DNA of 64,000 bases, from the sequence record PZ172995.1; one strand, 5' to 3'. A program made the position numbers and the translations under genes. The stretch is from a phage. Position 1 is the stretch's first letter; every line of letters starts with the position of its first letter. The notes below the pieces were generated by a model, which was given only the letters and a program-made list of their open reading frames with translations, made no database searches and had not been told where the DNA came from. Shown here piece by piece: positions 11,485 through 64,000 of this stretch.

Positions 11485-12660
11485 ATGGCAGTAGGTGAAA
11501 TTCAAATTAGTGCCTTGCCACAAGCGGCCTTACCAATTGATTTGAGTGATATCTTCCATCTTAAGCAAGGTGTTGAGGATAAAAGATGTACGCTTGAACA
11601 GTTGTTAGCACCTCACGCATCTTTGAGGAATAATCCTCATGGTGTAACTAAATCACAAGTAGGTCTTGATAATGTTATTAACTCTCTTCAATTAGTTGCA
11701 GCTAATAACTTGTCAGATATTGTAAATGTTGCTGAGGCAAGAGCAAATCTACAAATTATGTCGTCAGAGGAAGTGAATAACTTAATTCAGCAACATATTG
11801 ACGACAAAAGTAACCCACACAACACAACGAAAGCACAGGTTGGTTTAAGTAATGTTCAGAACTGGACAACATCCAACCTGTACAATGAAGATGCTGATAA
11901 ATATGCTACCGCGAGAGCAGTGAATAATCTATACAAAGCTATCCAAGCATCATATCCAGTGGGGACTATTCATCTGTCTGTTAACTCTGCTAACCCATCC
12001 ACTTACTTGCTTTGTGGAGGTACTTGGGAGTTGGTTTCTAAAGGTAGGGCGCTTGTTGGTTATGATACAGAAGCTAGACCTGTTGGTTCAACGTTCGGTT
12101 CTCAGACTGTAGCATTAACAAATAATAATTTACCAGCACACACCCACTCTATCTATTTAACAGGTGGTGGTCACACACACTCTGCAAGCGTATCTATCTC
12201 TAGTTTTGATTATGGTTCAAAAAGTACATCAACTTTTGATTACGGTACAAAAACGACTAATAGTGCTGGTGCTCACACTCACACGTTTAGCGGCACGACA
12301 AGTAATGATGGTAACCATAACCATAGAGTACCACTGAGAGGTAATGATAGAAGTGGGGGGGATGCTATTACTGCATCTGCTTATGCTGGGGTTAATAATA
12401 ATACGTATACTGATTTAGCAGGTGCTCACACCCATAGCTTCTCAGGCACAACTGCATCATCTGGTGCTCATAACCATACTGTTGCAATTGGTGCTCATAG
12501 CCACACTGTTAATATTGGTTCACACAGTCATACGGGCACTGTTACTGTCTCTAGCTCTGAACATACACACTCAGGAACATCTGGTTCTGTTGGTGGTGGT
12601 CAAGCTTTCAGTGTTGAGCAGCCATCTTTTGTCGTGTATGTATGGCAGAGAACAGCTTAA
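11485..12660 (+). CDS. tail fiber protein with C-terminal HxH-repeat domain
   Basis: 391 aa; C-terminal third has repeated H-T-H / H-N-H / H-S-H triplets (AHTHSFSGTT, GAHNHTVAIGAHSHTVNIGSHSHTG) and ends ...VWQRTA; RBS AGGAG. Confidence 0.65.
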   Translation: MAVGEIQISALPQAALPIDLSDIFHLKQGVEDKRCTLEQLLAPHASLRNNPHGVTKSQVGLDNVINSLQLVAANNLSDIVNVAEARANLQIMSSEEVNNLIQQHIDDKSNPHNTTKAQVGLSNVQNWTTSNLYNEDADKYATARAVNNLYKAIQASYPVGTIHLSVNSANPSTYLLCGGTWELVSKGRALVGYDTEARPVGSTFGSQTVALTNNNLPAHTHSIYLTGGGHTHSASVSISSFDYGSKSTSTFDYGTKTTNSAGAHTHTFSGTTSNDGNHNHRVPLRGNDRSGGDAITASAYAGVNNNTYTDLAGAHTHSFSGTTASSGAHNHTVAIGAHSHTVNIGSHSHTGTVTVSSSEHTHSGTSGSVGGGQAFSVEQPSFVVYVWQRTA

Positions 12661-18348: not shown

Positions 18349-18678
18349 TTAATCTGCCAACCTTAAGTTAAAATTAACACCAAATTTTTCGCATACTTCC
18401 AACATAAACTCAAGCGAGACATTACCAGTGAGATTGATTATGTTGGATACACGAGCCTGAGAGATACCACAAATTTTAGCAACTTGCTCTTGAGAAAGAC
18501 CTCTGGATTTAATCTCTCTCTTAAAACGATGTGCAACGAAATCTCTCATTTCGTCTACATCCATTGGACAAATATAACTCTCCATTTCAGCTTCTCTGTC
18601 AGCCTCCCAATCATCTTGTGGAGCATAAGGGTCAAAAACCTCATTCATCTTTCTTCTTCCGTTTGCGTGAAGTGTCAA
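18349..18678 (-). CDS. HTH (XRE-like) DNA-binding protein
   Basis: 109 aa; C-terminal region LSQEQVAKICGISQARVSNIIN resembles helix-turn-helix. Confidence 0.5.
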   Translation of the reverse strand: MTLHANGRRKMNEVFDPYAPQDDWEADREAEMESYICPMDVDEMRDFVAHRFKREIKSRGLSQEQVAKICGISQARVSNIINLTGNVSLEFMLEVCEKFGVNFNLRLAD

Positions 18679-20063: not shown

Positions 20064-20669
<606 letters not shown>

Positions 20670-20808
20670 TTAGTTGATTGTTAAGTTGTTTGTAAAGAAC
20701 CCTCAACAGAAGACTCTTTAGAAACTTGGTAGATTTTTAACGTGGCTACTACCATCCACCCTTACCGCGACACACCGAACCAGACCTTACACCACCTTAC
20801 ACCACCCC

Positions 20809-20893
20809 ACCTCATTAAAAGACCCTCTTAAAAGGCCTTTTAAAAAGGTAAGTCTCATTTTAATGTAGCTGAGACTAACTACCCATACCTCAC
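20809..20893. repeat. conserved intergenic element, copy B (~85 nt)
   Basis: CCTCATTAAAAGACCCTCTTAAAAGGCCTTTTAAAAAGG plus core identical to copy A; flanked by A/C-rich (minus strand G/T-rich) CACC/CCGAAC-repeat sequence as in copy A. Confidence 0.7.
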
Positions 20894-21061
20894 ATCACCG
20901 CACCATACTACACCTGACACCACCTTACACCACCGCACCATACCTGACCGAGCTACACATCACTTAAAAACCCTCTTAGAAAGACTCTTAAGTGATGCTG
21001 GTGAGTACCTGTTGGTTTATGCTGCTCAGTATACTCACCAAATTTTCTATGTCAACAACTT

Positions 21062-62366: not shown

Positions 62367-62630
62367 ATGGAAAACGTCGAACTGACCACACTTTTACAAA
62401 TTGCAACCGACAAAGAGGATGTAGCATTATTCCACCGTATCGAAAGTGATTTGTTCAATGGTGAAATCATTAAAGAATCTTACGAAGTGGTCGGATTCAA
62501 AGATGGTAAATCATTTGGATTCTTTGACCTCGACAAAGGCAACGCTATTACAAAGTATGATGTTTTATCTTGTGAGATTCTGACAAAATACAACGAAAAA
62601 AGACTTGCAACATACGCCAACATGCAGTAA
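62367..62630 (+). CDS. small early protein
   Basis: 87 aa after cassette. Confidence 0.5.
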   Translation: MENVELTTLLQIATDKEDVALFHRIESDLFNGEIIKESYEVVGFKDGKSFGFFDLDKGNAITKYDVLSCEILTKYNEKRLATYANMQ

Positions 62631-62695
62631 ATTACTAATCAACGGGAGGGATAACCTCCCTACTAAGTAAAGTCCTTAAACTAGGAGATTCTAAA
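62631..62695 (+). promoter_or_regulatory. early intergenic cassette type 2
   Basis: TAAATTACTAATCAACGGGAGGGATAACCTCCC (hairpin ~62644-62660) + TACTAAGTAAAGTCCTTAAACTAGGAGATTCTAAAATG. Confidence 0.55.
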
Positions 62696-62944
62696 ATGGC
62701 AACTATCCGCGCAATTGTAAATTCTTATGGCTGCTACACTCTGGACGTTAAATTTGATATAGGTGGGACCGATGAGTGTTTCGAACTGGTGAAAACAGTC
62801 ATTAAACAAGTTATCCCAGACTATAACCCTACTGATGACTTCTGGAAAGATGCAGTAAAAGAGGCGTTGAACGATGAATATCATTACCATTATTGGGGTG
62901 ATTTGATTGTCTCCCTGTACTACAATAAACAAGGTTGCAACTAA
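62696..62944 (+). CDS. small early protein
   Basis: 82 aa; last ORF before ~1 kb non-coding repeat region. Confidence 0.5.
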   Translation: MATIRAIVNSYGCYTLDVKFDIGGTDECFELVKTVIKQVIPDYNPTDDFWKDAVKEALNDEYHYHYWGDLIVSLYYNKQGCN

Positions 62945-62982
62945 TCGACGCAACGGGGCTAAATAGCCCCAGATACCTTTAT

Positions 62983-63006
62983 AGCCCCTTAAATGGGGCT
63001 TTTTTA
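62983..63006 (+). terminator. rho-independent terminator
   Basis: AGCCCC-TTAAAT-GGGGCT followed by TTTTTT; preceded by second hairpin GGGGCTAAATAGCCCC at ~62955-62970. Confidence 0.65.
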
Positions 63007-63049
63007 CGTCTTAACAAATCCCTATACAACCCTTTTCCTTTCCTTTCCA

Positions 63050-63700
63050 GAATCTATCCCATACCTTAAAAGCAATAACTCTATAGCTTACTCTATAGCC
63101 CCTTATCAAATCAACTTAAATATAAGCCCATAACCCGAAAGGGAAGGGCAACCATTTAAACGCTCTATAAAGCCCTATAACAGCCTTATCAACCTAACTT
63201 AAGGGATTGCATTACCTCACCCTTAAAAGCCCTTTATAAAGCTTCCCAGAGCCTTAAAAGAATCTTATAAGGGTGTAAGCTTTATTATCTCGTTAGCTAT
63301 CTTGTGAATGGTTAAACAACCCCTTGATAGTAACTGAAAAGTATGTTATAGGGGCTATAAAGTTACTTTGAAGTAGTTTAAAAGTTACTTAAAAGTTACG
63401 TAAATGCTAGCCCCCTTAACATTTTCTTAACAATTTCTTAACAATCCCTACATAGTTATGCTTTTAAGGTACTTGTTAGCAACTTGTTAGCCCCTTGTTA
63501 AATCTCTGTTAAAACCACGTAAAAGCCTTGTAAGAGCCTTTGACATAGCCTATAAAGCCTCTGTAAAGCCCTATAAATAGCTTTCTGTATAGTTGGGGTG
63601 TAATTACTAGGAAGAGACTAAAAAGAGCTTATAAGGAGCTATAAAGGGCTTTTAAGAGGGCTATTTAAAGGGTCACTAAGAGAGAAAGGGAACGATAAGA
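63050..63700. repeat. dispersed short direct repeats of CTATAAAG(C/G)C family in gene-free region
   Basis: About ten copies or variants (CTCTATAAAGCCCTATAA, CTTTATAAAGC, GGCTATAAAGTTAC, CCTATAAAGCCTCTGTAAAGCCCTATAAATAGC, GAGCTATAAAGGGC ...). Confidence 0.6.
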
Positions 63701-63995
63701 AAAGAGATAGTGACCATGTTAATAGCTTGTTAAAAAGATTAAACACTTGTTAGAAACTTGTTAATTATCTTAACAAAATAACTCTTTAAAATTAACTTGT
63801 TAGCTCTTGTTAGTCATCTGTTAAGACACTGTAAAGCCTATGTATCAACTGTTAAGAAACTGTTAAGTTCTTGTTAAAACTGTTAAGAATCTGTTAAGAC
63901 CTCTGAAGAGATGTTAAGAGGTTGTAAGAACTGTTAAGAGATTGTTAATGATATTTTAAAATTCTGCAAAGGGGATGTTACAGGGCTGTTAAGGG
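63420..63995. repeat. iteron-like array of CTTGTTA(A/G) / CTGTTAAG repeats, ~11-13 bp periodicity
   Basis: Two inverted copies (TTCTTAACAA x2, ~63428-63450), four copies ~63471-63510, and at least 15 copies from ~63725 to 63995 (e.g. CAACTGTTAAGAAACTGTTAAGTTCTTGTTAAAACTGTTAAGAATCTGTTAAGAC). Confidence 0.7.
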
Positions 63996-64000
63996 CTACC

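Follow-up and report, generated by a model that had tools for sequence, protein, structure and literature searches.

Short repeated motifs beside or around a terminase cleavage site serve as recognition platforms in several phages. In lambda, cosB comprises the gpNu1 sites R1-R3 and an IHF site beside cosN, inside the packaged DNA. The cleavage region of P1 pac is flanked by hexanucleotide elements TGATCA/G, and SPP1 possesses the pacL and pacR boxes. T7 carries, by our count, 13 exact copies of CCTAAAG in the same orientation within about 300 bp of its 160-bp terminal repeat; these short-repeat arrays were reportedly named SRL and SRR by Dunn and Studier. Here we describe an array of TGTTAAG-type repeats which is located at the right end of a 64,000-nt stretch of phage DNA (record PZ172995.1, in the following called the window). 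The array lies within a direct terminal repeat (DTR) and is best grouped with the recognition arrays of short repeats known from packaging sites and concatemer junctions of phages.

The region 63410-64000 is the DTR, about 591 bp long, of a genome of the Felixounavirus group (Felix O1-like myoviruses), and window position 64000 is the right terminus of that genome. Between 256 and 264 phage records match the region with 76-97% identity, nearly all of them from Felixounavirus, Mooglevirus or Suspvirus of the subfamily Ounavirinae, and the gene order of the window agrees with that of phage D4. The occurrence of the repeat at both ends was tested on these relatives; the window lacks the left end of its own genome. 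In the phages D4, ECP2307 and GE_vB_7A the first 581-592 bp match the last 581-592 bp with 99.5-100% identity. Their DTR runs from GCCCCCTTAACATTTTC to GTTAAGGGCTACC, with boundaries at the bases which match 63410 and 64000, and the termini of D4 were set by PhageTerm. In several independent records the sequence stops exactly at the base matching 64000 or starts at the one matching 63410.

For the related phage UAB_Phi87 a DTR of 608 bp was determined by Bal31 digestion and run-off Sanger sequencing (PMC4837284). The published DTR (Fig. S1 of that paper), AACATTTTC...GGGCTACCAA or in fuller form AACATTTTCTTAACAA...GATGTTAAGGGCTACCAA, corresponds to 63418-64002 of the window, so that the mapped ends differ from those of the DTR-anchored records by 8 nt at the left and 2 nt at the right. 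Because the repeats of the relatives and the mapped ends of UAB_Phi87 agree this closely, the region 63420-64000, which the initial annotation of the window had singled out as a repeat array, can be equated with the DTR, and the right terminus of the genome lies at the end of the window. A terminal-repeat boundary had been only one of several options offered there, and the data go beyond it: the region is the whole DTR with boundaries at about 63410 and 64000, and not merely its vicinity. In practical terms, the window ends at a true genome terminus. To a phage specialist the finding as a whole is not surprising. Short terminal repeats were inferred in the Felix O1 genome paper, which does not describe the motif array (PMC3185647), and in the literature searched on Felix O1-like phages we found no description of the array, of an origin or of a pac site. 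While this DTR has been known before, the conserved and phased TGTTAAG array that it contains, with its relation to both cut sites in four genera, appears to be undescribed.

With TGTTAR taken as the core, the region 63410-64000 contains 20 forward copies on the + strand and four inverted copies on the - strand. The more than 20 repeats originally announced can thus be counted at the level of the core, whereas stricter motifs do not reach that number. The same is true for the octamer (A/C)(C/T)TGTTAAG, of which at least 15 copies had been reported between 63725 and 63995: on the + strand of this segment the core occurs 15 times, CTGTTAAG or CTTGTTAG ten times, YTGTTAAG seven times and the literal pattern only four times. 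Further copies had been noticed at 63471-63510, and indeed four forward cores precede the main array (63474, 63485, 63496 and 63507). Inverted copies are present at the left as had been stated, their number being three (63416, 63427 and 63438) and not two; one more inverted core is found at 63770.

The cores are far from randomly placed. Their best-fit period is 10.30 bp (Rayleigh R = 0.84), a value equalled by none of 5000 random placements, which confirms the proposed spacing of roughly one helical turn. At 10.3 bp the 4-base spectral power is 10.6, compared to a background maximum of 5.7. Given the genome-wide rate, 0.25 cores would be expected in the main array, which comprises 16 (Poisson P = 7e-24). 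When the DTR segment alone was shuffled 2000 times with its dinucleotides preserved, 1.07 +/- 1.0 forward cores (maximum 6) were obtained against the 20 observed, and the frequency is therefore far above the expectation from local base composition. Counted in intervals of 300 bp, the terminal region reaches 17 cores and the densest interval elsewhere in the 64 kb four. Five copies of CTTGTTAG are located in the terminal region, compared to two in the other 126 kb (both strands counted).

No cluster of the TGTTAAG motif is found within the 64 kb outside the terminal region. This bears on the suggestion that the array consists of clustered operators or promoters under a phage transcription regulator such as the HTH_3 protein encoded at 18349-18678, or that it is a sink for RNA polymerase. 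The phage family does encode an HTH_3 regulator, and TTAACA, the reverse complement of the core, matches the -35 hexamer TTGACA at five of six positions. However, the motif clusters at no other intergenic region, and HTH_3 dimers typically bind palindromes and not long direct arrays. There is also no gene to control, as both neighbouring blocks are transcribed towards the region. Promoter-like hits in the terminal region occur at chance level and none of them is paired with a good -10 hexamer, for which reason a promoter cluster was rejected. The dense regulator-binding region listed in the initial annotation is accordingly very hard to maintain.

In the order of the concatemer, which can be deduced from the relatives, the DTR is situated inside a non-coding region of about 1.65 kb, and the flanking gene blocks converge on it, each of them closed by a terminator. 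The DTR and its flanks are untranscribed DNA between these two convergent blocks. No ORF of 60 aa or more exists in 62945-64000, as had been observed before, and the longest one within 63420-64000 comprises 35 aa. Rfam gave no matches at E <= 1 in 62600-64000, and a structured RNA element or a tRNA locus was rejected for this reason. Since the terminators are convergent and promoter-like hits are seen only at chance level, the region probably acts purely at the level of DNA. Small hypothetical ORFs (25-55 aa) are annotated inside the DTR or its flanks in several records, among them UAB_Phi87 (L023 1954-2249) and D4 (L005 2963-3127). In view of the repeat structure and of the missing conservation of these reading frames, we regard the gene calls as probably spurious.

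More than 250 relatives have kept the region, so that neither of the two observations named in the initial annotation as refuting the array (lack of conservation, or a repeat frequency no higher than local composition predicts) applies. Selection acts on the letters of the motif as well as on its phase. In 20 Felixounavirus junctions the cores are 97.5% conserved, the spacers 87.6% (Mann-Whitney P = 5e-8). Across genera, 19 of the 24 cores are kept at aligned positions in Moogle (Mooglevirus, P = 5e-7) and 16 of 24 in SUSP1 (Suspvirus, P = 3e-5), compared to 26-29% of other hexamers and at an overall DTR identity of about 75%. The identity per base is 0.93 (Moogle) and 0.88 (SUSP1) in the cores and 0.70 elsewhere. 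These figures are somewhat inflated, as aligners tend to pair repeat copies. In both phages the DTR can be aligned over its whole length (100%), compared to only 21-25% of the 2.7 kb of genes next to it. Because it is alignable where the genes are not, the non-coding terminal region is more constrained than its neighbouring genes.

The Erwinia phages of the genus Kolesnikvirus are more distant. Only 86 bp are alignable, yet the same motif and the same layout are found: the left side has inverted copies, and the forward array, with a phase of 10.2 bp, lies towards the right. Kolesnikvirus vEam_PM_21 contains a 438-bp repeat at both genome ends, and the boundaries of the DTR are homologous to those described above: at the left the cut lies between TA and GCCAC..., at the right between ...GCGGCCAC and TAAGTAGATATACA. 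In all four lineages tested the phase of the array is 10.2-10.35 bp, and inverted copies at the left boundary together with a phased forward array reaching to the right boundary are common to four genera of the Ounavirinae.

One could assume that the tandem units are a neutral by-product, generated and homogenised by replication slippage or unequal recombination in dispensable non-coding DNA and free of any sequence-specific function. The lengths of the DTRs in the relatives (about 570, 580, 591, 602, 613 and 633 bp) indeed increase in steps of about 11 bp (R = 0.85, none of 3000 random sets being as good), although the sequences are related and the steps are not independent events. As the length is quantised in this way, units are gained and lost as a whole, and this gain and loss is ongoing. 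The conservation data, however, speak against neutrality: the cores are much more strongly conserved than the spacers and, at an overall identity of 75%, still occupy aligned positions; in Kolesnikvirus, where the surrounding DNA cannot be aligned, motif and layout are retained; and the non-coding region outlasts the adjacent genes. A purely neutral origin is therefore quite improbable.

A second possibility raised by the phasing is an architectural or end-handling element, i.e. a segment that is bent or bound by a nucleoid- or histone-like protein. Such a segment might act on the genome end at the portal, at the start of ejection, in protection from exonucleases or in the end-to-end annealing that leads to concatemers. 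The phasing of 10.3 bp places every unit on one face of the helix, and the element, being the DTR, occupies each end of the virion DNA. As far as bending is concerned, only periodicity measures are available for the array: its AA/TT periodicity ranks 11th among 626 segments of the window, which is in the top 2% but unexceptional, and its maximum lies at 11.3 bp, not at 10.3 bp. It is mainly the letters of TGTTAR that are conserved and not the phasing of A/T, and for this reason sequence-specific recognition is favoured over bending alone. An architectural function as such appears rather unlikely to us.

The position of the repeats relative to the termini points to packaging. The main array borders on the right cut, its last forward core ending 7 nt short of the right terminus. 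Next to the left cut are the three inverted copies, the first of which starts 5-6 nt from the boundary. The outermost copies face outward on both sides, with TGTTAAGGGGGC reaching the left boundary on the - strand and TGTTAAGGGCTACC the right one on the + strand. Repeated elements which adjoin the cleavage position of the terminase are a feature of cosB- and pac-type sites. Because the region is the whole DTR, a packaging-related role is the best-supported reading among those which had been proposed; the terminal repeat itself is established, the name iteron-like is not supported, and of the other items on the list the partition site did not hold and the regulator is unlikely.

Among the known systems T7 is the most similar. 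Both phages have a short exact DTR, a T7-like replisome and many copies of a 7-nt motif in the same orientation in the non-coding concatemer junction, both within the repeat and in its flanks; here these are the 20 forward cores and about eight more in the right flank of the relatives. The motifs end with ...TAAAG in T7 and ...TTAAG here. On the other hand, CCTAAAG differs from TGTTAAG, the spacing in T7 is 13 bp (or 24-29 bp) instead of 10.3 bp, and most T7 copies are outside the repeat, whereas most copies are inside it here. The T7 junction contains promoters (A0, phiOL, phiOR), in contrast to the terminal region described here with none above chance, and T7 has a known small terminase subunit (TerS), gp18, while none has been identified in the Felix O1 lineage. 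As motif and spacing differ, the relation to T7 is one of analogy and not of homology.

With cosB of lambda the array shares several short elements adjoining the cut site, which fits a cooperative loading of a recognition subunit. But cosB consists of three 16-bp sites compared to about 24 sites of 6-7 nt, and lambda produces 12-nt cohesive ends and not a duplicated repeat of 590 bp. Furthermore, no IHF consensus is found in the DTR, and PHROGs and Pfam scans of the ORFs beside the gene of the large terminase subunit (TerL) revealed no Nu1-like protein. P1 and SPP1 resemble the locus in having short repeated motifs at the terminase cleavage site, but they are headful packagers with permuted ends, fewer repeats and other motifs, and P1 pac is in addition controlled by Dam methylation.

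Taken together with the layout, the TGTTAAG-type sites are a putative cis-acting platform for the packaging machinery that positions the two cuts of the DTR; we consider the chances of this proposal to be about even. We infer that a protein binds the array, that this protein is connected to the terminase and that the outward copies place the cuts. The substrate would be the replicated concatemer with one DTR copy per junction. The binder, which may be the terminase itself, a recognition protein similar to TerS or an N-terminal segment of TerL, would assemble cooperatively on the array, whose 10.3-bp phase keeps the sites on one face of the helix. The outward-pointing outermost copies at the two boundaries would then set two cuts about 590 bp apart, and the interval between them would be duplicated to give the repeat at both ends of every packaged genome. 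By parallel with cosB and cosN of lambda one may speculate that packaging starts at the right end, from the large array beside the right cut.

As no TerS is known for the Felix O1 lineage, such a platform needs an unconventional recognition system. Only TerL and no small terminase was found in the Felix O1 genome paper (PMC3185647), and the mechanism of packaging with exact DTRs is described as poorly understood in a paper which also cites the work on gpNu1 and IHF (PMC13595956). In TerL of D4 (L029 16968-17240) the N-terminal 75-90 residues or so ahead of Terminase_6N are without domain assignment, and in more distant TerL homologues the alignment begins only at about residue 60-70; this is no more than a lead. 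A non-canonical terminase, in which this N-terminal segment or a small protein polymerises on one face of about 280 bp and, by means of the outward-pointing copies at both boundaries, sets the cuts about 590 bp apart, is a doubtful variant. If true, it would be an undescribed way to measure and make an exact short terminal repeat.

Several observations weigh against the packaging platform. First of all, no candidate for the binder was found: the PHROGs and Pfam scans of the ORFs beside TerL gave no TerS. In D4 the ORF immediately before TerL (L029 16746-16946), in the usual position of a TerS, encodes 66 aa; the protein is acidic and coiled-coil-like and was rejected as a DNA binder. It belongs to phrog_4397 with no assigned function, has no Pfam match, and its homologues are unnamed. 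Two further candidates were dismissed, a 244-aa ORF upstream, which is DUF7217, and a 166-aa ORF after the portal gene, which had no informative match. To our knowledge the function of the CCTAAAG arrays of T7, the closest analogue, is not established either.

The arrangement of the sites is also not as tidy as the platform would suggest. In the relatives TGTTAG/TGTTAAG copies go on for about 500 bp past the right boundary of the DTR, so the array extends beyond the repeated interval. The last exact core in Kolesnikvirus is 39 bp from the cut. The left end of UAB_Phi87 as determined by Sanger sequencing lies 8 nt inside the left boundary of the DTR-anchored records, which weakens the argument from symmetric boundaries. 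A packaging signal might further be expected in elements that exploit it, but among 5,426 E. coli genomes no real match that would indicate a satellite carrying the signal was obtained, only one 52-nt fragment, and none of 72,556 plasmids contained it. The predicted pac region of ICP1, between gp1 and gp2, is without a phased array, although TerL of ICP1 is about 31% identical to that of this lineage; its TerS has likewise not been identified (PMC11417361). PaP1, whose TerL is about 40% identical, speaks neither for nor against the platform: its record is not DTR-anchored, and the parts examined show no array.

A 21-mer spanning the right DTR boundary (GGGCTACCAAGCAGATATACA) was searched in 185,579 species genomes and gave one exact match, in the Bacteroidia SAG contig JAOKFZ010000001.1 (L035 7898-7918). 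It is located inside a leucyl-tRNA-synthetase-like gene with no other similarity and was discarded as a chance match.

A last point against packaging is the GC trough of 23% right after the array, which fits a replication origin equally well. An iteron-type or other origin is the main rival of packaging. Here the phased repeats would bind a phage initiator, and the initiator would open the AT-rich DNA next to the DTR in the concatemer or circular form; such a function could coexist with packaging, as at the T7 junction. The dense direct repeats on one helical face are in favour of it, as are the AT-rich stretch adjoining the array (23% GC right of the DTR boundary in HMD-P10, with further repeats beyond), the sharp switch of the GC skew across the junction, and, in the right flank of HMD-P10, a single 9-mer that resembles a DnaA box but for one mismatch. 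In T7 the secondary origins phiOL and phiOR adjoin the terminal repeat. However, the units of 10-11 bp with a core of 6-7 nt are only about half as long as iterons (17-22 bp), and no DnaA box with up to one mismatch is found in 62945-64000. An initiator is missing among the 171 annotated features of the close relative D4, although many hypothetical proteins remain and its absence is not proven. The replisome is T7-like with a PolA-type polymerase and a primase-helicase, a type which starts at transcription-dependent origins, whereas promoters are not above chance here and both flanking transcription units end before the region. The exact registration of the array with both mapped termini would also be left unexplained. 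We consider an origin unlikely on these grounds, and the term iteron-like, which was used in the initial annotation, is not appropriate for this family of repeats.

Very similar arguments apply to a partition-like site. R1 parC consists of tandem 11-bp units which are bound by ParR, and like iterons it is composed of helix-phased direct tandem repeats bound cooperatively by a small protein; its unit length is close to that of the array. Yet no Rep, ParR, ParM, ParA or ParB is annotated in D4, the phage is a lytic, virulent myovirus, and neither iterons nor parC explain why the edges of the array coincide with the genome termini. A partition centromere of the parC/parS type was therefore rejected.

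Returning to the packaging platform, its interest lies in what it offers for further work. The array is a concrete DNA bait with which the missing recognition factor of the Felix O1-like phages could be found, and about 24 conserved phased sites between two mapped cuts are a handle on how exact short DTRs arise. It also provides a defined cis element for engineering, as a packaging signal in transducing particles or in the rebooting of synthetic genomes. Felix O1-like phages are widely used in typing, biocontrol and therapy directed at Salmonella and E. coli.

The anatomy of the terminal region can be summarised from left to right. The last ORF before it covers 62696-62944, and downstream of its stop codon at 62944 the sequence is wholly non-coding with short repeats throughout. 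An intrinsic terminator on the + strand (62983-63006), identified by a terminator scan, closes the rightmost + strand gene block and marks the start of the non-coding concatemer-junction region. It is followed by the left flank of the DTR (63007-63409), which is unique right-end DNA, non-coding and C-rich on the + strand. This flank contains our repeat families D5-D13, i.e. a second family of 10-11 bp repeats (CTATAAAG, CTTAAAAG, TAGCCCCTTA and AAAGTTAC) with a spectral peak at about 11.1 bp, and 75-92% of it can be aligned in Moogle and SUSP1. In HMD-P10 the homologue of the flank (L003) shows a GC skew down to -0.7.

The DTR itself (63410-64000, + strand), for which we rely on the end-to-end identity of the relatives, on UAB_Phi87 and on D4, occurs at either end of the virion DNA. 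Its left boundary block (63402-63421) is TAAATGCTA before and GCCCCCTTAACA after the cut; according to a boundary table of 22 junctions it is conserved in Felixounavirus, Mooglevirus and Suspvirus, and it is homologous to TA followed by GCCACTTTTACA in Kolesnikvirus. Just inside this boundary the three inverted TGTTAAG copies (63415-63444, - strand) are spaced by 11 bp and point towards the left cut; they are kept in Moogle, UAB_Phi87 and the Erwinia phages. The four forward copies (63474-63512, + strand), with CTTGTTAG twice, CTTGTTAA and CTGTTAA, have a spacing of exactly 11 bp and correspond to a TRF row at 63471-63500 and to repeat family D2. The central DTR segment (63520-63713) is again occupied by the second repeat family, here as CTGTAAAG, CTATAAAG, GCTTATAAG and GGGCTTTTAAG (repeat families I14, D4, D11 and D14), with a periodicity of about 11.2 bp.

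The main phased array (63714-64000, + strand) consists of about 27 units of 10-11 bp, 16 of which have exact TGTTAR cores while the others are degenerate. Its consensus according to the logo is aaCTGTTAAGa, and all units are located on one helical face. The lone inverted core within it (63770-63775, - strand, ATCTTAACAA) is conserved in its position among the relatives. The right-boundary block (63950-64000, + strand) ends with TTTTAAAATTCTGCAAAGGGGATGTTACAGGGCTGTTAAGGGCTACC at the cut, as seen from the boundary table and the Kolesnikvirus DTR. In three genera no variation is seen in the last 13 nt or in the AAGCAGATATACA after them, and both can still be recognised in Kolesnikvirus. Beyond the DTR the relatives continue with the invariant AAGCAGATATACA, then with the GC trough of 23%, and then with about eight forward TGTTAG/TGTTAAG copies in a G-rich right flank. 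In HMD-P10 (L003 4000-5600) the left flank of the junction has a GC skew of about -0.35 to -0.7 and the right flank one of +0.4 to +0.74. The DnaA-box-like 9-mer of this junction, with its one mismatch, is the conserved block TTATTCACATATGATGGTGACCC near the far end.

The second repeat family deserves some further remarks. With the units CTATAAAG, CTTAAAAG, GCCCTTTATA and TAGCCCCTTA it spans 62945-63409 as well as 63520-63713, and its period of 11.1-11.2 bp is unlike the 10.3 bp of the main array. Some of the central copies are inverted relative to the left flank, including a perfect inverted match of 17 nt between 63222-63238 and 63640-63656. In the Erwinia phages the left flank bears TTCTAAG repeats instead (L028 2530-2880).

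Two other repeat-containing stretches were noticed in the window. An intergenic stretch of 395 bp (20667-21061) is located between two - strand genes, of which the downstream one corresponds to the DNA ligase gene in D4. It is composed of the C/A-rich units ACCTTACACC and CACCTGACACC and of the motifs CCCTCTTAAAAG, CCTTTTAAAAAGG and CTCTTAGAAAG, which resemble the second repeat family of the terminal region; a TGTTAAG array does not belong to it. The other stretch, 12451-12519, is found within a structural-gene region. It is a tandem repeat of 27 bp with about two copies and 77-83% matches, and it resembles the in-gene repeats reported for the Felix O1 genes 76 and 77.

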